Assembly (NCBI GenBank): GCA_964484675.1 | Contig: CAZAFC010000001.1 | Span: forward strand, 2,826-66,825 | From: an uncultured Candidatus Saccharibacteria bacterium | Lineage (GTDB): Bacteria; Patescibacteriota; Saccharimonadia; Saccharimonadales; UBA4665 | DNA: 64,000 bases | Direction: 5' to 3' | In this document: positions 24,762 through 58,191 of the stretch, one piece after another | Position numbering within the stretch: position 1 is the first letter of the stretch | How the letters are laid out: every line of letters begins with the position of its first letter | The notes under the pieces: model-generated | What the model was told of the DNA's origin: nothing | Seen by the model: the letters and a program-made list of their open reading frames with translations, nothing else | The model's database searches: none | Made by a program: the position numbers and the translations under genes

Positions 24762-25529
24762 ATGACACCTCCCCATGAGTATGATTCGTTTGCTGAAAAG
24801 CGTGCCCAGGAGTTCGCTAGCGGTAAGAATCTTGTCCATGCATATATTGAAAAGCCAGCAATGTATGCGCTGCTACCTAATCTTGAGGATAAAACGGTCC
24901 TATGTATAGGCTGTGGTACCGGTGAAGAATGCGTAGAGTTAAAGAGCCGTGGCGCACAAGTTACTGGTGTCGATATCTCCTCAACCTCAATCGATTACGC
25001 TAGTCATCATGTACTAGGCGTAGACTTCAAGTGTCTCGACATGGATAGCTCTACGGATATATTGGCGCTAGGGGAAGGCAGCTTCGACATTATTTATTCC
25101 AGTCTAACGTTGCACTACAGTAATGACCTCGATGCCTTATTAAGGAACTTGAGCACATTACTGACCCCTAATGGCCTGTTACTATTCTCGGTCGGTCATC
25201 CGATACGCTGGGCAGCAAAAGTAAAGGAAGAGGACGGTGTTAAGTCTGTAGTCATGGGATACAGCCAAGGGCATGCCGGTAGGGAAATATTTGGTGATTA
25301 TTTATCGACTAAGCAATTTACACAAAAACTATCGGATGGCCCTGAAGTTACGTACTGGATGAGGCCCATATCAGCCTATCTTGAACTACTCAAGGAAAAT
25401 GGCTACGACTTGCTTAAATTCATCGAGCCGTCTCCGGTCACAGCTGTCCGGCAGATCGACGAAAACTTCTGGAATTTGCGTACAAAAATCCCTGTCGATA
25501 TGATTTTTCTAGCTCAAGGTCAAGATTAG
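24762..25529 (+). CDS. Class I SAM-dependent methyltransferase
   Basis: Motif I VLCIGCGTGEE, post-I GVDIS, and IIYSSLTLHY. Clearly lower GC than the flanks. Confidence 0.85.
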   Translation: MTPPHEYDSFAEKRAQEFASGKNLVHAYIEKPAMYALLPNLEDKTVLCIGCGTGEECVELKSRGAQVTGVDISSTSIDYASHHVLGVDFKCLDMDSSTDILALGEGSFDIIYSSLTLHYSNDLDALLRNLSTLLTPNGLLLFSVGHPIRWAAKVKEEDGVKSVVMGYSQGHAGREIFGDYLSTKQFTQKLSDGPEVTYWMRPISAYLELLKENGYDLLKFIEPSPVTAVRQIDENFWNLRTKIPVDMIFLAQGQD

Positions 25530-50169: not shown

Positions 50170-50856
50170 CTATGCCGCCTCAGTAGCAGAAGCTTCGGCA
50201 GGAGTATCGTCCTCGCCTTCGGCCTCAGGTGCCTCAGACTGCTCTTCATCGGTGTCGTCGCCGCCAGCCGCATCGTTGGCCGCAGCCAGCGCGCTCGGCT
50301 CAAACACCGTCGCGATCGTTTGCGTCGGCTCAGCAGCGATCTCCACGCCGTGCGGCACGATCAAATCAGCAACCGTCGCGTGATCACCTACTTCGGCAAG
50401 CTTTTCAGCGTCGTAGTACAGTGCTTCGGGCAAATTCTTTGGCACCGCCGTTACGGCCACCGATTCAACGTTTTGTAGCACGATAAATCCAGCGCGCTCG
50501 GCTGGGCTCGCTTCGTTCCCTTCGGCATACTGCGCACGAATTGGCACCTCAGCGTCAACTTTTTCATTGGCCCGAACGGCGTTGAACACCACATGACTGA
50601 GCTGGTGACGACGCGGGTCGAACGTCACCGATTTGATAAGCGCTGTGTATTTTTGGCCGCCGGCCGAGAGCTGCACCGGCGAGTGCTTGCCGGCGGCGCT
50701 GTAGACTTTGTGCAGCGCGCGGTAGTCAGCCTGCACCATCACCGAAGCTTTGCCGTGGTCGTGAATCACCGCTGGCACGATGCCCTGCTCGCGCAGTTTC
50801 TTTACAGGCTTGCCGGTAACGGTTCGTGGGTCGACATCGAGTTTAACTTCGTGCAT
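50170..50856 (-). CDS. rplY: 50S ribosomal protein L25 / general stress protein Ctc, acidic C-terminal tail
   Basis: AAGGAG SD. The N-terminus ...GKPVKKLREQGIVPAVIHDHGK...ALIKSVTFDPRRHQLSHVVF is typical L25/Ctc. Confidence 0.9.
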   Translation of the reverse strand: MHEVKLDVDPRTVTGKPVKKLREQGIVPAVIHDHGKASVMVQADYRALHKVYSAAGKHSPVQLSAGGQKYTALIKSVTFDPRRHQLSHVVFNAVRANEKVDAEVPIRAQYAEGNEASPAERAGFIVLQNVESVAVTAVPKNLPEALYYDAEKLAEVGDHATVADLIVPHGVEIAAEPTQTIATVFEPSALAAANDAAGGDDTDEEQSEAPEAEGEDDTPAEASATEAA

Positions 50857-50938
50857 GGTATCTCCTTAAAAATCGGGTACTTACCTAGTATAGCAAAAAA
50901 TGGTGGACTCCTTAAGCCAAACACGTTACGCTTGAGAA

Positions 50939-51580
50939 ATGAACGTGCACGACATTATTCAGAGTGGCGGCCTGCTCCTCATTTCCTTGATTATATTTGC
51001 CGAATCGGGCATGCTCGTGGGCTTCTTTTTGCCCGGTGACACCCTACTCCTGAGCGCCGGCGTGTTCGCCGCGCAAGGCAAACTGCCCGGCGGCATCGGG
51101 CTGACCATCGCCGTCATCGCGTTGGCGGCCATTCTCGGCGACAACACCGGCTACACCATCGGCAAATTCAGCGGCCCACGATTTTTCCGCAAAAAAGACG
51201 GCATTTTATTTCGGCAAGAATACGTGAGACGCGCCGAACTTTTCTACGAAAAATATGGCGCCAAAACCATGTTGCTGGCGCATTTTCTGCCGATCGTGCG
51301 CACGTTCGTGCCGATCGTCGCCGGCATCGCCAAAATGCCGCGCTTGCAATTTTTCATCTTCGACGCCATCGGCGATACTGCCTGGGCCATCGGCGTAACG
51401 CTGCTCGGCTATTGGTTCGGCAGCCGCATTCCAAATATCGACCACTACATTTTGCCAGTGTTCGTCATCGTTACTGTGCTCTGTTTTGCGCCAATGCTGT
51501 GGCATATTCTCGGCGATCGCACCACGCGTAAGCGACTTTTCCGCGCCATCACGCGCAAGTCCGACAGCTCGAGCAATTAG
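50939..51580 (+). CDS. DedA (SNARE-associated) family membrane protein
   Basis: FAESGMLVGFFLPGDTLLLSAG and the FLPIVRTFVPIVAG signature. Confidence 0.85.
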   Translation: MNVHDIIQSGGLLLISLIIFAESGMLVGFFLPGDTLLLSAGVFAAQGKLPGGIGLTIAVIALAAILGDNTGYTIGKFSGPRFFRKKDGILFRQEYVRRAELFYEKYGAKTMLLAHFLPIVRTFVPIVAGIAKMPRLQFFIFDAIGDTAWAIGVTLLGYWFGSRIPNIDHYILPVFVIVTVLCFAPMLWHILGDRTTRKRLFRAITRKSDSSSN

Positions 51581-51748
51581 CAACGCGCGGGCTCGTGAAT
51601 ATCGAACTAGCTTTATGCTCGGTTCGCGTTCACTCCACAATGCGCTCGCCTGCCCGAGTATCCTGCAGCCATGCTTTCTCGGGGCGTTTGGGCTTTGGCT
51701 TTTATGGTCTGTGAGATTATTCACACGCGGCGCGCCTTCAAAACGCTT

Positions 51749-51774
51749 GTATACATACCTAGGCGTATGTATAC
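51749..51774. repeat. 10-bp perfect inverted repeat (possible operator)
   Basis: GTATACATAC (51749-51758) and GTATGTATAC (51765-51774) are separated by CTAGGC. A second inverted repeat, CTTCATAT/ATATGAAG, lies at 51787-51813. Confidence 0.5.
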
Positions 51775-51880
51775 TTTTCTTATACTCTTCATATGTGTAG
51801 GTTATATATGAAGAAGCGCACCCAACTGCCACAGCCGATGTGGCTAGTTTGGTGCACCAAAATAACAGCTCGGAGGCGCC

Positions 51881-52156
51881 ATGCAACAACTCACTTTTAC
51901 GCTTGATGAATCGTGTATCCGCTGGTATAGCTATCATTTTAACGATACCATTCTGCGCAATGATATTTCATGGCGCAGCTGGCATCTCGCCTTGCAGCGA
52001 ACGCTCAACGACAAACAACTTGACGGCGCAGATTGCGCCATTTGTGGCCGCCATATTCCGCAAAACGAAGCTGCGCCGATCGAATATCTGGGCGGCTACA
52101 GCTTACGCACATGTCTTGCACATAGCAATCTGAGCGGGACGCCTACCAGCGACTAG
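51881..52156 (+). CDS. Small hypothetical protein with a CxxC...C..H cluster
   Basis: GGAGG lies 6 nt before the ATG. 91 aa (…GADCAICGRH…LRTCLAH…). Low GC. Convergent with the four-paralog operon. Confidence 0.4.
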   Translation: MQQLTFTLDESCIRWYSYHFNDTILRNDISWRSWHLALQRTLNDKQLDGADCAICGRHIPQNEAAPIEYLGGYSLRTCLAHSNLSGTPTSD

Positions 52157-52199
52157 CAGCACTGCCGACCTGTCCAGGCAAAACACAATCTTCGCGCGC

Positions 52200-52766
52200 C
52201 TAATCCTGCTTCTTCTGTATCTCGCGCATGATCAAATCGCGAATAATCTCCGACTTATTTTTGCCCGTCTCGAGCGACTCACTTCGCAAATAGCCGTAAA
52301 TCTGCCGATCGATGAACATATTAAAGCGCAGCTCCTTGGTAGAAATCGTGTTTTCCATGAGAAAATCGCCAACAATCTTCGCCACGTCCGCCTCGGTCTG
52401 ATATTCCGCCACCTTGAGATATCGATTTTTATACTCGCCGATCGTCCGCCACAAAATCGGCTGGCGCGACACGATCAGCACCGGCTTCTTCTGCTGTAAT
52501 GCCATCGCAACCTGGAATCCTTGCGTAAAACTGTAGTCAGTCGCCTCAACGATGACAAGATCGGCACGAGAAATCGCCTCAAGATTCTCCTCGATAATCC
52601 GGCCGTGGCCACCAATGTCATGCTTGTTCTTATGTGTGTGGTACGCGACCTCAATCCAGTCGCGAGCGAGCATAGCGTCGTTCTCGCTGAGAACTTTCAC
52701 GATCGCCCGCAAGTACGGCAGCTCGTCCGTAACGTCCCATTTACTACCAGTCAGATGCACAATCAT
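52200..52766 (-). CDS. DNPH1/nucleoside 2-deoxyribosyltransferase-like domain plus C-terminal RHH (paralog 4 of 4 in transcription order)
   Basis: MIVHLTGS..., ADLVIVEATDYSFTQGFQVAMAL..KKPVLIV, and C-terminal RFNMFIDRQIYGYLRSESLETGKNKSEIIRDLIMREI. Confidence 0.75.
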   Translation of the reverse strand: MIVHLTGSKWDVTDELPYLRAIVKVLSENDAMLARDWIEVAYHTHKNKHDIGGHGRIIEENLEAISRADLVIVEATDYSFTQGFQVAMALQQKKPVLIVSRQPILWRTIGEYKNRYLKVAEYQTEADVAKIVGDFLMENTISTKELRFNMFIDRQIYGYLRSESLETGKNKSEIIRDLIMREIQKKQD

Positions 52767-52832
52767 AACGTCTCACCAATCAAGCGCCAAGTATACCAGA
52801 AGCTACTAGCACTTGCTATTAGCTATCTATGC

Positions 52833-53417
52833 CTACTGTTCTTCATCCATCAGCATTTTTAATTTTAAGCCTGCATGAAGCAGATCTTGCACCATATTGA
52901 GCCGCTCGGCTTCCGGGCAGTCAATGGAGCTCAAATAGCGTTGGACTTGGGGACTTAAAGATAAAGTCATCGAGGTCCGGGTGGCCTCACTCTGCCCTTG
53001 CAAATACCGATTGACAGCATGAGCAACGTCCGTTTTAGTAGAGTATTCTACAACCTCGAGGAGCGCAGACTCGTAGCCAGAAAAAGTACGTGCTTTAAAT
53101 TGATTACGCGTTAAGACAAGGACCGGCTTACTGAGCCGAAGTGCGGTCGCTACCTGGAACCCTTGCGAGAAAGTGTAGTAGGTGCTTTCGGCGATAACGA
53201 CATCTGCGCGCCGGATCGCTTCAAGGTTCGCCTCAACGATTGGTTGCCAATCGACCTTCTCATCAGGAATCCCATGAACAAGGTGTCGCTGATACGCTGC
53301 CTCCGTCCAATTGCGCGCGATACTGTCTCCATTTTCATGGACAACATCTATAATTCGTTGGAAGTAAGGCATATCTTCGCGAATATTTCGCGCACTGCCC
53401 GTCAGATGGACGATCAC
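52833..53417 (-). CDS. DNPH1/NDT-like domain plus degenerate C-terminal RHH-like tail (paralog 3)
   Basis: The GTG start overlaps the upstream TGA (GTGA). MIVHLTGS..., ADVVIAESTYYTFSQGFQVATAL..SKPVLVL. Confidence 0.7.
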   Translation of the reverse strand: MIVHLTGSARNIREDMPYFQRIIDVVHENGDSIARNWTEAAYQRHLVHGIPDEKVDWQPIVEANLEAIRRADVVIAESTYYTFSQGFQVATALRLSKPVLVLTRNQFKARTFSGYESALLEVVEYSTKTDVAHAVNRYLQGQSEATRTSMTLSLSPQVQRYLSSIDCPEAERLNMVQDLLHAGLKLKMLMDEEQ

Positions 53418-54007
53418 ATCTTTTTCTCGGCAGTAATTTTCTGGACTTGCATGCCCAGCTTGGCCAGTTCGTAGAGCGCTTCGCCTTTCGTTTTGCCAGC
53501 CGCGGATGCCATGTCGTCAAGGTAGGTCAAAAGCACTCTATCAATCGGGGTTTGCACCGTCAGATCTTCCGAAGCCATCTGGTTGGCAGCGATAAATTCC
53601 CGTACTATCTCCGCCAGCTCTTTGCGATCTTTGTAGGTCTTCATGGTGAGCAGCTTATTCTTCACACCCGAGATAGCGTACTGGCGAAAAGATTTTCGCG
53701 ATACCAAGAGCACAGGAATGCCCTTTTGTAGCGCCAAAGATAATTCGTAGCCATGGTACAGGCGATAAGTGGTCGTCTCGGCGATGTAGAGATCGGCGCG
53801 AGCTACGGCGTATTCGTTTTCGCGAACAGCGTATGCCCAGTCCATTTCTTCATCTTTGGCTATAGCATTTTTTGTATTGTAGTTTGAATGTTCCATCCAA
53901 TTACGCGCAATACTGCACCCTTCTTTGTGGACGGCATCTATTACTGTTCTAAAGTCAAAGAATTCTTCACCTTGAGCTCGTATCCCACCACCAATTTGCA
54001 CAATCAT
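53414..54007 (-). CDS. DNPH1/NDT-like domain plus C-terminal RHH (paralog 2)
   Basis: ADLYIAETTTYRLYHGYELSLAL..GIPVLLV, and C-terminal LTVQTPIDRVLLTYLDDMASAAGKTKGEALYELAKLGM. 1-nt gap to the upstream gene. Confidence 0.7.
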   Translation of the reverse strand: MIVQIGGGIRAQGEEFFDFRTVIDAVHKEGCSIARNWMEHSNYNTKNAIAKDEEMDWAYAVRENEYAVARADLYIAETTTYRLYHGYELSLALQKGIPVLLVSRKSFRQYAISGVKNKLLTMKTYKDRKELAEIVREFIAANQMASEDLTVQTPIDRVLLTYLDDMASAAGKTKGEALYELAKLGMQVQKITAEKKM

Positions 54008-54008
54008 A

Positions 54009-54578
54009 CTAGTTTTCTTGTTTGTCGATCTCGTTCTGAACTAGATCTCGGAGAATCTCGGCCTTAGTCTTGCCTGTCTTGAAAGCTGCCCAACGGAGAT
54101 AGTTATAAATCTTGCGATCAATGAAGAAGTTAAATCGCATATCTTTGGACTTGATATCATTATCACTTATAAAACTACTTACGATTCCCTTGAGGGAATC
54201 TGTCGTATACTCTTCATGTTTTACCCAGCCATCTTCTACGCCTGTTACAAATGCGTTTTTATCAGCGGTACTATGCCTGAGCAAAAGCACTGGCTTCTTT
54301 TGCTGAATTGCGACGGCAATTTGATAACCAATCGCGAAATTTTCATAACTAGTTTCAGCGATTATGATGTCAGACTTCGCAATTGTTTCAAGGTTCTGCT
54401 TTACAATTGCAGTCCAATCAGGAGCAGGCTGGCTTGGTTCCGTATTCCTCCGATAGGCACGCTCTATCCAATCGAGTGCCAGCTCATGGCCAGAACCCTT
54501 AACCACCTCCACAATCTGGCGCAAGGTGTTAATATCATTCTCGAGTGTTGGGCGGGATGTTATAAAGTGCACTTTCAT
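54009..54578 (-). CDS. DNPH1/NDT-like domain plus C-terminal RHH (paralog 1, promoter-proximal)
   Basis: GAGGT SD. MKVHFITS..., SDIIIAETSYENFAIGYQIAVAI..KKPVLLL, and C-terminal RFNFFIDRKIYNYLRWAAFKTGKTKAEILRDLVQNEI. The lowest-GC stretch of the window. Confidence 0.75.
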   Translation of the reverse strand: MKVHFITSRPTLENDINTLRQIVEVVKGSGHELALDWIERAYRRNTEPSQPAPDWTAIVKQNLETIAKSDIIIAETSYENFAIGYQIAVAIQQKKPVLLLRHSTADKNAFVTGVEDGWVKHEEYTTDSLKGIVSSFISDNDIKSKDMRFNFFIDRKIYNYLRWAAFKTGKTKAEILRDLVQNEIDKQEN

Positions 54579-54594
54579 TTTGTGGACCTCGCTT

Positions 54595-54690
54595 TAGTAA
54601 ATATTATGTGGCTGCTGCAAAAGTAAGTCAGAATTATGATTCATTATCGATTCTATCATAAATTATGATCAAAAGTAATATTATGTTAGA
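54595..54690. promoter_or_regulatory. AT-rich divergent control region with nested direct repeats (candidate RHH operators)
   Basis: The ATTATG core occurs at 54603, 54633, 54662 and 54680. Outer pair: AGTAAATATTATGT / AGTAATATTATGT. Inner pair: AATTATGATTCA / AATTATGATCAA. Confidence 0.4.
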
Positions 54691-54742
54691 GTAAATCTTT
54701 AAGACTTACAAATAGCACATACAAACCATTCAATTCTAGCCT

Positions 54743-55372
54743 ATGTCATATCCTGCTGGTCCGAATAGCATCACTCTTAAAGCATACTCCCAGCACGTCA
54801 CGGAGTATATTAAAAATACTCCTTCGAATTACCAGTCGTACCATATACCTCTTCTTCGTTGGATCAATTTTAGTCTAAAACTTATAGCGCCTCAATCTAA
54901 GGTATTGGAGATTGGAAGTGCTACTCCCCGCGAAGCACGGTATATACGTTCAAAGGGTTTTATTGTCCATGCCAGTGATGCCGTACCGGCATTCGTAGAT
55001 CACCTTCAGGATAAAGGCGAGGATGCCTTTTTGCTCAATTTACTGACAGATGAGATTGAAGGTGACTATGCAATGATCTTCGCCAATGCCGTCTTCTCCC
55101 ACTTTTCTCGGCAGGAAATAATCAAAGCCCTACATAAAGTCTACAATGCCTTGAGTCCCGGCAGTATATTTGCCTTTAGCGTAAAGCAGGGGAATGGCGA
55201 AGGGTGGATTACGGAAAAATTTAGTGCTGCACGGTATGTCAAATACTGGCGACCTGATGAAATATATGAACTGGCCGCGGCTATCGGCTTCATAGTTGTA
55301 TTTAAAGAGCAAGATATCAATGGAGATTTGCCTACCCACACCTGGATCAACATTGTTGCACGGAAACCGTAG
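54743..55372 (+). CDS. Class I SAM-dependent methyltransferase
   Basis: Motif I VLEIGSATP, post-I HASD, and MIFANAVFSHF. Low GC. Divergent from the paralog operon. Its stop lies 5 nt from the uvrA stop. Confidence 0.8.
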   Translation: MSYPAGPNSITLKAYSQHVTEYIKNTPSNYQSYHIPLLRWINFSLKLIAPQSKVLEIGSATPREARYIRSKGFIVHASDAVPAFVDHLQDKGEDAFLLNLLTDEIEGDYAMIFANAVFSHFSRQEIIKALHKVYNALSPGSIFAFSVKQGNGEGWITEKFSAARYVKYWRPDEIYELAAAIGFIVVFKEQDINGDLPTHTWINIVARKP

Positions 55373-55377
55373 TCTGA

Positions 55378-58191
55378 CTACTTGAGGAGTTTGGCTAGGA
55401 ACTGGCCGGTGTAGCTTTCTTTGGTTTTGGCGACTTGTTCGGGGGTGCCGGTGGCGACGATTTGGCCGCCAGCGGAGCCGCCTTCGGGGCCCATGTCGAT
55501 GAGCCAGTCAGCGGATTTGATGACGTCGAGGTTGTGTTCGATGACGACCATACTGTTGCCGGCGTCGACGAGCGCGTGCAGCACGTGTAGGAGCCGCTCG
55601 ACGTCGGCCATGTGCAGGCCGGTGGTCGGCTCGTCCAGAATGTACAATGTGCGGCCAGTCGGGCGCTTGGAGAGTTCGGTGGCCAATTTAATCCTTTGCG
55701 CTTCGCCGCCGGAGAGCTGCGTGGCGGGCTGACCGAGCGAGATGTAGCCAAGGCCAACGTCCACCAAAGTCTGCAGCTTGCGTGCGATGCTCGGCTGATT
55801 GGTAAAAAAGTCTAAGGCCTGCTCGCAGTTCATCTCGAGCACGTCGCTGATCGTCTGACCCTTGTACGTGATCTCGAGAGCCTCGCGGTTGTAGCGCTTG
55901 CCGTGGCAGACTTCGCACTGCACGTAGACGTCGGGCAGGAAGTGCATTTCGATCTTGATGATGCCGTCGCCGGCGCAGTTTTCGCAGCGACCGCCCTTGA
56001 CGTTGAAGCTGAACCGGCCGGCGGCGTAACCGCGAAGCTTGGCTTCGGGCGTGCTGGCGAACAGTTCGCGAATCGGCGTGAACAAACCTGTGTAGGTGGC
56101 CGGATTCGACCGCGGTGTGCGGCCGATGGGCGATTGATCGATGATAATCGCTTTGTCGAGCTCCTTGATGCCCTGAATTTCGTCGTGCCGGCCAGGCACG
56201 GTGTTGGCGCGCATCAGCCGAGCTTGGAGCTCTTTGGCAAGGATATCGTTGATAAGCGAAGATTTGCCCGAGCCGGACACGCCGGAAACGACCACCAGCT
56301 CACCGAGCGGAATTTTGGCCGTCACGTCGCGCAAATTGTTTTCGCGCGCGCCGACGATGGTGAGGAATTTACCATTGCCCTTGCGGCGCTTCTTGGGCAC
56401 CGCGATTTGCTTCTTGCCCGAGAGATATTGCCCGGTGATGCTCGCCGGAGTTGCCATAACTTCCTTCGGTGTGCCCGCCGCAACGACATGGCCGCCGTGC
56501 ACACCCGCGCCCGGCCCGATATCGAGCAGATAGTCGGCCGTGCGAATCGTATCTTCGTCGTGCTCGACCACAACCACGGTGTTGCCAAGCTCTTTCAAGT
56601 GCTTCAGCGTCTTGATAAGCCGCTCGTTATCGCGCTGGTGCAGCCCGATGCTCGGCTCGTCCAAAACATACAAAACACCTTGCAGACCAGAGCCGATCTG
56701 CGTAGCCAGCCGAATCCGCTGCGCTTCGCCACCACTCAGCGTTGTGGCGCTCCGCAGTAGGGTGAGGTAATTCAGCCCGACATCTTGCAAAAAGCCTAAG
56801 CGCGCGCGAACTTCCTTGAGAATCAGCTTGGCGATCTGCATTTCTTTGTCGGTGAGCTTGAGATCGCCGAAGTAGGCGTTGGCTTCGTCGATCGACATTT
56901 CACAGAGGTCCATGATGGAGTGCTTGGCAATCGTGATGGCCAAAACTTCCGGCTTGAGCCGCTTGCCGCCGCAGGCATAGCACGGCTTTTCGATCATGAA
57001 TCGCTCGATGTCGTTGCGGATAAATTCGCTGTCAGTTTCTTTGTGGCGGCGTTCGAGGTTCGGAATCACGCCTTCAAACGTTGTATTAAACACACGCCCG
57101 CCGCCCAGGCTGACCTTGTACGTCTCGTCGCCGGTGCCATACAGCACGCGCTTGAGATCTTCGGCGCTCAACTCGCCCGTCGGCACGTGCAAGCTAAAGC
57201 CGTGTGCGTCCGCTACGGCCTGCATCTTCTTCATGTACCACGTGTCCACGTTGACGCGGTTAAAAGGCCGTATAGCGCCCTCTGCGATCGTTAGGCGGCC
57301 ATTTGGAATCACCAGCTCCGGGTCAACTTCCAGCCGCGAGCCGAGGCCAGTGCACACCGGGCATGCACCCTGTGGCGAGTTGAAGCTGAACGTGCGCGGT
57401 TCGAGCTCAGGAATCGCAACGTCTGGGTGGTCGATGCAGGCGTACATCAGGCTGTACTGGAACTCTTCGTTGTTCTCGGCGTTCACGACGCGGATTTTGC
57501 CCTCGGCCACCTCGAGCGCCTGCTCCACCGACTGCGCCAGTCGCGAGCGCGATTCTTCGTTGTTCACCAGCCGGTCGATCACCACGTCGATGGTGTGCTT
57601 GTAGTTTTTGTCGAGCGAAGGGAATTCGTCGAGCGCGTACACCACGCCATCGACGCGGGCGCGGGCAAAACCAGCGCGCATGTACTGCTCGGGCACATGC
57701 TCGAAGGCGCCTTTTTTGGCCGAGACGACCGGTGCGAGGATCATCAGGCGCGCATCGGCCGGCAATCTGACAATCTGATCGACAATGTTCTGAGTGGTTT
57801 GGCGCGTGACCGGCTTACCGCAAATCGGGCAGTGCGGCACGCCGATGCGCGCGAACAGCAGGCGCAAATAATCATAAATTTCGGTCACAGTCGCCACCGT
57901 GGAGCGCGGGTTGCGGCTCGTGGACTTTTGGTCGATCGAAATCGCCGGGCTCAGGCCGTCGATCTGGTCGACATCCGGCTTTTCCATCAGGCCGAGGAAT
58001 TGCCGCGCGTACGAGCTCAAACTCTCCACATACCGGCGCTGGCCCTCGGCATAAATCGTGTCAAAAGCAAGACTCGACTTGCCCGAACCGGACAAGCCCG
58101 TAATCACCACCAGCGCGTTGCGCGGCAGCTCCACATCAATATTCTTGAGGTTGTGCTCGCGCGCACCCTTGACGACAATCTTCTCAGCCAT
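55378..58191 (-). CDS. uvrA: Excinuclease ABC subunit A (UvrA)
   Basis: 937 aa with two ABC ATPase modules ([26 protein letters not shown] twice) and zinc-finger cysteine pairs. Confidence 0.95.

Follow-up and report, generated by a model that had tools for sequence, protein, structure and literature searches.

NrtR, in which an inactive Nudix domain is joined to a winged helix-turn-helix (wHTH) domain, and Bacillus subtilis PurR, in which an inactive phosphoribosyltransferase (PRTase) is joined to a wHTH, are both pseudo-enzyme one-component regulators. PutA, a ribbon-helix-helix (RHH) domain fused to proline-catabolic enzymes, is catalytically active. RHH proteins bind DNA as intertwined dimers that place an antiparallel ribbon into the major groove; the module is N-terminal in NikR, MetJ, and PutA and C-terminal in the HicB antitoxins. 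The window considered here, a stretch of 64,000 nucleotides of contig CAZAFC010000001.1 from the genome of an uncultured soil Candidatus Saccharibacteria bacterium, contains an array of four tandem genes on the minus strand, named A, B, C, and D in order from position 54578 to 52200 (Table 1), whose products combine an N-terminal domain of predicted DNPH1/nucleoside 2-deoxyribosyltransferase (NDT) fold with a C-terminal RHH-like module. At a probability of roughly 0.55, these four paralogs are considered to be one-component transcription regulators specific to the Saccharimonadales, with a DNPH1-fold pseudo-enzyme as the sensor and the C-terminal RHH as the output.

The likeness to NrtR and PurR lies in the use of a catalytically dead nucleotide-enzyme fold as a sensor for an attached DNA-binding domain, encoded beside metabolic genes; the window family differs from both in its DNPH1/NDT sensor, its RHH output, and its tandem expansion to as many as five copies. 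PutA likewise carries an RHH and an enzyme-type domain on one polypeptide, however it is active and much larger, and within the window family the B-type alone keeps even one catalytic residue. With the ligand-regulated RHH repressors NikR and MetJ, and also with CopG, Arc, Mnt, and ParD, the family shares the β-α-α module and its G-x-[ST]-K turn, and with NikR the placement of RHH and ligand-binding domain in a single chain. The proposed sensor has a DNPH1 fold, in place of an ACT-like domain or a bound S-adenosylmethionine (SAM) co-repressor, and the RHH is C-terminal to it, unlike that of NikR, MetJ, and PutA.

DNPH1 (Rcl) and the deoxyribosyltransferases have in common a catalytic triad, Tyr24/Asp80/Glu104 in human numbering (PMC10483697). 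In DNPH1, Glu104 is the essential nucleophile, placed under C1' and hydrogen-bonded to Tyr24, and Asp80 probably acts as general acid; the backbone amides of Ile29-Gly31 and Gly100 bind the 5'-phosphate together with Ser98 and Ser128', and the nucleotide pockets are composite, being formed by the dimer (PMC10483697). The rat equivalents of the triad are Tyr13/Asp69/Glu93, the nucleophile sitting in a GYELG motif.

The N-terminal ~140 residues of the window proteins are predicted to adopt this DNPH1/NDT fold. As single sequences A, C, and D match Pfam PF05014 (Nuc_deoxyrib_tr) at 21.5, 19.4, and 18.6 bits against a gathering threshold of 28.8 bits, and B gives no match; many A-orthologs carry a precomputed weak match to the same family. 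A profile built from the four paralogs aligns with rat Rcl/DNPH1 (4fyh) at E 2.4e-8 across positions 3-106 and with human DNPH1 at E 1e-5 to 1e-4. The AlphaFold2 (AF2) model of A, built from 99 sequences (pLDDT 88.7), features a parallel sheet with flanking helices; DNPH1/Rcl structures account for the top 47 Foldseek matches of this model in the PDB (best E 6.9e-8, probability 1.0, target-normalised TM ~0.8), and the CMP hydrolase MilB comes next. With the paralog profile, the AF2 model, and the Foldseek matches in agreement, assignment of A to the fold, with its five-stranded parallel sheet and five helices, is solid. An initial annotation, made from the sequence alone, had noted collinearity with DNPH1/Rcl and proposed a Foldseek comparison of the N-terminal domain; profile and structural matches both lead to the family it named. 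The D-x-x-x-A-E, G-[YF]-x, and K-P-[VI]-L blocks are collinear between the window family and DNPH1/Rcl and the NDTs; the family is set apart by H/N/Q or Q/N/E in place of Tyr/Asp/Glu, by the added C-terminal RHH, and by an insertion of its own with an almost invariant Trp (W37).

The triad positions were read from a hidden Markov model (HMM) alignment to DNPH1 combined with the paralog alignment. Paralog B is the sole window copy with a Glu at the nucleophile position (Table 1). The conserved Glu that the initial annotation took for the catalytic nucleophile, the invariant residue of the A-E-[TS]-[ST] block, falls elsewhere in the profile alignment, on rat Glu82; the position of the true nucleophile is occupied by Gln in A, C, and D, and for these three copies the claim of a catalytic Glu is wrong. 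Among PDB entries the rat D69N mutant scores best, and its Asn is also that of the window copies. Loss of the triad extends well beyond the window: among A-orthologs the nucleophile position is Gln in 115 of 120 and His4 is present in all 120, and among full-length family representatives at 50% identity (n = 125) the nucleophile position holds Gln in 81, Glu in 11, and a hydrophobic or other residue in the rest, Asp occupies the Asp80 position in four, and the complete Y-D-E triad occurs in none. RHH-less NDTs of Lactobacillaceae recovered by the same search (loci L052 and L053) retain Y-D-E and serve as a positive control; a standalone protein in locus L040 is likewise Y-D-E.

The Ser98-equivalent is Ser in 59 of the 125 representatives, and the loop matching G-S-I-R-G-G is of the same length and is not Gly-rich; the region of Ser128' in DNPH1 falls outside the aligned part of the profile match. 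In A-orthologs, conservation reaches 90% or more at the pocket-equivalents H4, S8, N62, E75, S77, N80, Y85, and Q86, versus a domain mean of 71%; since these are among the best conserved residues, they argue for an N-terminal domain that keeps its polar binding pocket but not catalysis.

Identification of the C-terminal ~40 residues as an RHH module is supported by Pfam matches across the family and by the modeled topology. The signal from the window copies is weak (D against Pfam RHH_1, E 0.029; A against an Arc-like PHROG, E 0.07, and against a RelB-like NCBIfam model, E 0.17, in an NCBIfam search that otherwise returned noise). When the C-terminal segments of the family are compared with Pfam, RHH_1 is matched by 22 of 72 (best 7.3e-6), RHH_3 by 11 (3e-5), and RepB-RCR_reg by 9, with single matches to ParG, TraY, Arc, and SeqA_N; a PDB profile search with the C-terminus returned the SeqA N-domain, AvtR, CopG, NikR, and VapB26, all with weak E-values. 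In AF2 models of both full-length A and the isolated 49-residue module (pLDDT 93 for the latter), an unpaired extended segment at residues 148-154 is followed by helices at 155-168 and 172-188 with the G-K-T-K turn in between. The module superposes on ParD1 (8c24_E, TM 0.72, 1.3 Å), ParD2 (7r5a_D, TM 0.71), and Arc (1u9p, TM 0.70), all at 1.2-1.3 Å and with Foldseek E-values above 1; because these E-values are not significant, RHH membership rests on the Pfam matches and the topology. The order of β-strand, helix, G-x-[ST]-x turn, and helix is that of the models of A; the turn can be read in the sequences of A, B, and D and is lost in C.

The RHH is also the most conserved segment of the A-orthologs (mean 0.91, with conservation of 95% or more at 28 of its 37 positions). 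The A-type RFNFFIDR...TGKTK and D-type RFNMFIDR...TGKNK patterns are nearly exceptionless, and the diverged strands of the B- and C-types retain the alternation of polar and hydrophobic residues. The strands at the equivalent position are QFNLR in Arc and HFNFR in Mnt; the R-F-N of the A and D strands resembles the DNA-reading QFN and HFN of these repressors, which is taken as a lead rather than as a test. The RHH pattern described at the C-terminus in the initial annotation is therefore borne out by the family matches and by the β-α-α model; its description of C as the degenerate copy is right in that C is the most diverged, however C does not stand alone, as the β-strand of B has diverged too. 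Of the two functions put forward in that annotation, nucleotide-sensing one-component repressors are the better supported, because the triad is lost family-wide and conservation of the protein is highest in the pocket-equivalents and in the RHH.

An exhaustive HMMER search, with clustering at 50% identity, places the family at 1362 clusters at E < 1e-3 and 548 clusters at E < 1e-10, nearly all of ~190 aa and with a match that spans both domains. In their source records, which belong to Candidatus Saccharimonadales or Saccharibacteria, the homologs are named 'hypothetical protein' or 'nucleoside 2-deoxyribosyltransferase'. When GTDB species representatives were scanned by pattern search, 50 loci were recovered, of which 44 are titled Saccharibacteria, Saccharimonadales/Saccharimonadia, or Patescibacteria and are mostly soil metagenome-assembled genomes (MAGs); the remainder are one Dojkabacteria MAG, one MAG labelled Pseudomonadales, several unclassified MAGs, and the two RHH-less Lactobacillaceae NDTs. 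The family is thus found almost only in Saccharimonadales. Three distant RHH-fused relatives (L049, L050, and L051; 25-27% identity) come from non-Saccharibacteria MAGs, namely an unclassified bacterium, the Dojkabacteria MAG, and the one labelled Pseudomonadales; they keep the Tyr and Glu of the triad and not the Asp, and L051 carries three tandem copies.

The fusion and its tandem amplification are recurrent and not peculiar to this genome, a point on which the initial annotation had called for a survey. Within 6 kb, one to five copies are present per surveyed homolog locus (L-numbers), and about 40% of loci have more than one. Paralog A is the canonical family member, with orthologs of 45-78% identity in most of the surveyed Saccharimonadales; D represents the second common subtype and comes after an A-type gene in L005, L007, L009, L013, L021, L022, and L023. 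Orthologs of B and C occupy equivalent array positions in L023, where five tandem copies follow the order A-type, B-type, C-type, extra, and D-type, matching the A-B-C-D order of the window; L015, L026, and L027 have three copies and one divergent copy.

Table 1. Features of the array and its surroundings in the window, with the residues found at the DNPH1 positions Tyr24/Asp80/Glu104 and Ser98 (human numbering).
Feature	Position	Strand	Length	Tyr24/Asp80/Glu104	Ser98	Remarks
Paralog A	54009-54578	-	189 aa	His/Asn/Gln (H4/N62/Q86)	N	predicted DNPH1-like domain residues 1-140 (54159-54578); predicted RHH residues 148-184 (54027-54137), strand RFNFFIDR, turn TGKTK
Paralog B	53414-54007	-	197 aa	Gln/Asn/Glu	R	RHH strand TVQTPIDR (diverged); GKTK turn kept (AGKTK)
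Paralog C	52833-53417	-	194 aa	His/Asn/Gln	T	GTG start; C-terminal strand SMTLSLSP; G-K-T-K turn lost
Paralog D	52200-52766	-	188 aa	His/Asn/Gln	S	RHH strand RFNMFIDR; turn TGKNK
C/D gap	52767-52832	-	66 nt			extended -10-like element TGGTATACT at 52789-52797
Divergent intergenic region, A/methyltransferase	54579-54742	.	164 nt			29% GC; candidate promoter/operator only
Class-I SAM-dependent methyltransferase	54743-55372	+	209 aa			Methyltransf_23, 27.7 bits; divergent from A

The four genes are true paralogs, with 30-42% identity in pairwise BLASTP comparisons (E 1e-22 to 1e-41); tblastn finds no fifth copy of the family within the window. Both the paralogy with its common sequence blocks and the arrangement of four minus-strand open reading frames (ORFs) had been described in the initial annotation, and the ORF list reproduces the coordinates exactly, with a gap of 1 nt between A and B, a GTGA stop-start overlap between B and C, and the wider gap between C and D. 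The same four genes are called in an independent Logan assembly (SRR9179562). The NCBI gene calls shorten B to 143 aa and C to 179 aa by starting at internal Met codons, and the shortened products thereby lose the conserved first β-strand (MIVQ/MIVH); the longer ORFs, with the GTG start for C, agree with the family alignment and with the Logan calls. The GC content is 43% for A, 48% for B, and 50% for both C and D. The minimum of the window per kilobase is 40.6%, at 54001-55000, compared with 56.2% for the whole window; the array had been rightly placed in the lowest-GC island, and the ~70% that had been ascribed to the adjacent uvrA is wrong, the measured value being 59.4%. The second-lowest GC patch of the window (~44%) contains another class-I SAM methyltransferase-like ORF of 255 aa (24762-25529, plus strand).

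Two recurrent chromosomal settings are seen for the array: in the first, which is that of the window, the order is uvrA, variable genes, array, DedA, and L25, and in the second it is PBP, ruvA, variable genes, array, ruvB, x, and recA. In Saccharimonadales this slot (50170-58191 in the window; loci L001-L044) is a site of highly variable gene content, and at least one NDT-RHH gene is present in every case. Convergent with paralog D is a 91-aa ORF with a C-x-x-C motif (51881-52156, plus strand), which is called as a gene in the Logan assembly as well; its homologs (cluster c18) lie at the same place between array and DedA in L007, L009, L013, and L022.

In about a third of the loci, including the window, the gene immediately upstream of the array encodes a class-I SAM methyltransferase, and these enzymes fall into three sequence clusters. 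The divergent pairing of the window is also seen in L001, L002, L008, L010, L013, and L055-L058, the last four being among the closest relatives; in additional loci this place is taken by methyltransferases of other clusters. The sole PDB relative of the window methyltransferase is the uncharacterised RPA2492. The methyltransferase gene of the window is a candidate for regulation by the array. Elsewhere the upstream genes encode HAD hydrolases, a ComF-like PRTase (PRTase_3), PfkB and GHMP kinases, a GFO/IDH/MocA oxidoreductase, NUDIX hydrolases, and a GTP-cyclohydrolase-I-like protein, which was recognised by sequence reading alone. A further protein family, c3 (140-200 aa), is absent from the window and present in 23 loci (L001:4759-5193, L002:4358-4906, and 21 others), usually downstream of the divergent methyltransferase. 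It has no match in Pfam, keeps the K-P-[VI] motif, lacks an RHH, and is remotely related to the NDT-like domain (hhalign probability 94%, E 1e-7). The neighbouring enzymes loosely hint at nucleotide or nucleoside handling, which would make sense as Saccharibacteria are not known to make nucleotides de novo.

The divergent intergenic region carries a candidate operator that overlaps a candidate promoter. ATTATG occurs four times in it (54603, 54633, 54662, and 54680), within direct repeats of 9-10 nt, and exact 9-mer repeats are enriched, the observed count being reached by only 29 of 5000 Markov-1 controls. Three minus-strand promoter-like sites are present whose -10 hexamers coincide with the repeats; as the two overlap, they would fit with autoregulation via a promoter-overlapping operator. 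The C/D gap may hold a separate promoter for D. The D-type genes of L005 (6600-6634), L007 (6625-6660), and L009 (6680-6717) have a conserved extended -10-like element, CGTGCTATAAT, which ends ~10-12 nt before the ATG; the TGGTATACT of the window lies farther upstream of its gene. The short distance in these loci suggests that D-type genes have very short or absent leaders. An Rfam scan of 48-60 kb for structured RNAs or riboswitches gave no match.

By analogy with the dimer pockets of DNPH1 and the dimeric DNA binding of RHH proteins, ligand-modulated operator binding is proposed as the mode of action. Two chains would pair via a DNPH1-like dimer interface and the RHH β-ribbon; the ribbon, with R-F-N in the A- and D-types, would read AT-rich operator repeats, with which the promoters of both the array and the divergent gene would overlap, and the affinity for DNA would shift once the disabled active site is occupied by a nucleoside- or nucleotide-like ligand. 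The likely targets would be the regulators' own promoters and the adjacent variable cassette of small-molecule and nucleotide-handling enzymes, which comprises the SAM methyltransferase in the window and HAD phosphatases, NUDIX hydrolases, PRTases, and PfkB/GHMP kinases elsewhere. A and D would act with the canonical DNA-reading strand, and B and C with diverged strands and pocket residues; this divergence of pocket and ribbon among the tandem paralogs suggests different operators or ligands, or partners in heterodimers.

Several observations weigh against regulation of this kind. The window copies lie under the Pfam thresholds for both domains, and Foldseek gives no significant E-value for the isolated 49-residue RHH model. 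In the upstream regions of A-orthologs, neither 6-8-mers common to 14 of them nor repeated 5-7-mer half-sites in 17 exceed shuffled controls, and when intergenic DNA from L055-L057, L001, and L002, the closest relatives, is aligned with MAFFT, no conserved block is seen beyond the start codons; the relatives' intergenic DNA is unalignable although the DNA-reading strand is invariant. The adjacent gene differs among loci, so that a common regulon is not evident. Lastly, paralog B and some relatives keep the Glu, and some residual chemistry is possible for these B-type proteins.

Because no operator emerged from these comparisons, a role of the RHH-like module in protein-protein contacts only has to be weighed. 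The four proteins would then be nucleotide binders and not transcription factors, their β-α-α module serving only for dimerisation or partner binding, as in RHH antitoxins, and they would regulate another protein, such as the methyltransferase encoded next to them or c3, the NDT-like protein that lacks an RHH; this alternative is judged unlikely. The best C-terminal superpositions, which are on ParD antitoxins, would agree with it, as would the missing conserved operator among A-ortholog upstream regions, the diverged strands of B- and C-type proteins, some of which contain Pro, and the company of c3 in 23 loci. It is opposed by the strand R-F-N-F-F-I-D-R and the G-K-T-K turn, which are nearly invariant in A- and D-type proteins, a pattern that would be expected of a ribbon that reads DNA next to a helix whose N-terminus contacts phosphate; moreover, no toxin-like partner is conserved beside the genes.

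A mixed system, in which B-type proteins are PutA-like bifunctional trigger enzymes, catalytic as well as DNA-binding, A, C, and D serve for sensing only, and heterodimers couple nucleotide turnover to transcription, is quite improbable. Retention of the Glu is specific to the B lineage, the order A-B-C-(x)-D is common to the window and L023, and A-B-C are in tight translational coupling through the 1-nt gap and the GTGA overlap, all of which would suit such a division of labour; against it, B lacks the Tyr and Asp partners (Q4 and N62), and B and C types are found in one other genome only.

Least probable is an enzymatic role, in which DNA-tethered and catalytically active dNMP N-glycosidases or deoxyribosyltransferases would clean up nucleotide pools or deplete them, possibly as part of a conflict between phage and host: the DNPH1 fold, the Glu kept by B and by three of four B-type representatives, the Tyr and Glu of the distant RHH-fused L049-L051, and the frequent NUDIX and HAD neighbours of house-cleaning type would speak for activity, however the nucleophile that is essential as Glu104 in DNPH1 is Gln in A, C, D, and 81 of 125 representatives, the Asp80-equivalent is never Asp in the window copies, and no RHH-fused representative has the full triad. 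This was the second function put forward in the initial annotation, as dNMP N-hydrolases tethered to DNA, and it is disfavoured because the triad is lost (Gln replaces the nucleophile in three of the four copies), searches for defence systems and mobile elements are negative, and the array occupies a chromosomal housekeeping slot. PADLOC returned nothing for A-D and, for ten neighbour families, nothing but a generic methyltransferase match to mad2; no family relatives were found in IMG/VR, INPHARED phages, or PLSDB plasmids (tblastn for the phage and plasmid collections). The array lies in a conserved chromosomal slot with the housekeeping genes uvrA, DedA-L25, and ruvA/ruvB/recA on its flanks. 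A defence-system reading is rejected by these PADLOC, IMG/VR, phage, and plasmid searches, and the enrichment near defence genes that the initial annotation raised finds no counterpart in phages, plasmids, or defence neighbours. A type II toxin-antitoxin system with an RHH antitoxin was likewise rejected: no conserved toxin-like neighbour was found in 54 loci, where the neighbours are enzymes and further paralogs.

Transcription regulation by a pseudo-enzyme sensor remains the preferred reading, and a more specific version of it may tentatively be put forward, as a possibility on the unlikely side. The paralogs might be saccharibacterial nucleotide-quality sensors, in which certain nucleoside monophosphates, non-canonical or modified, would be bound by the disabled DNPH1 domains and these domains would then, via the RHH, switch on the hypervariable enzyme cassette. 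With similar reserve, the cassette might be seen as a set of nucleotide-modifying and -cleaning enzymes (SAM methyltransferase, NUDIX, HAD, PRTase, and kinases) beside DNA-repair genes; it is equally tentative that the tandem paralogs differ in ligand or operator specificity and that the Glu-retaining B-type could be a trigger enzyme.

The searchable literature contains no paper combining NDT/DNPH1 with RHH, or Saccharibacteria with deoxyribosyltransferase. The initial annotation had considered the DNPH1-RHH architecture to be undescribed, and this assessment stands: both domains hold and the fusion is absent from that literature. The concept has precedents in NrtR and PurR and in NikR, MetJ, and PutA. 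For the databases, the annotation 'nucleoside 2-deoxyribosyltransferase' or 'hypothetical' is corrected, as the homologs do not have the catalytic triad. If the proposed function is true, DNPH1/NDT would join the enzyme folds that have been reused as pseudo-enzyme sensors. Gene regulation in Saccharibacteria and other Patescibacteria is very little known, and a signal has been predicted for only a few of their transcription factors; the sensor fold of this large, lineage-restricted family points to nucleosides or nucleotides as ligands, metabolites that these obligate epibionts must take from their hosts.

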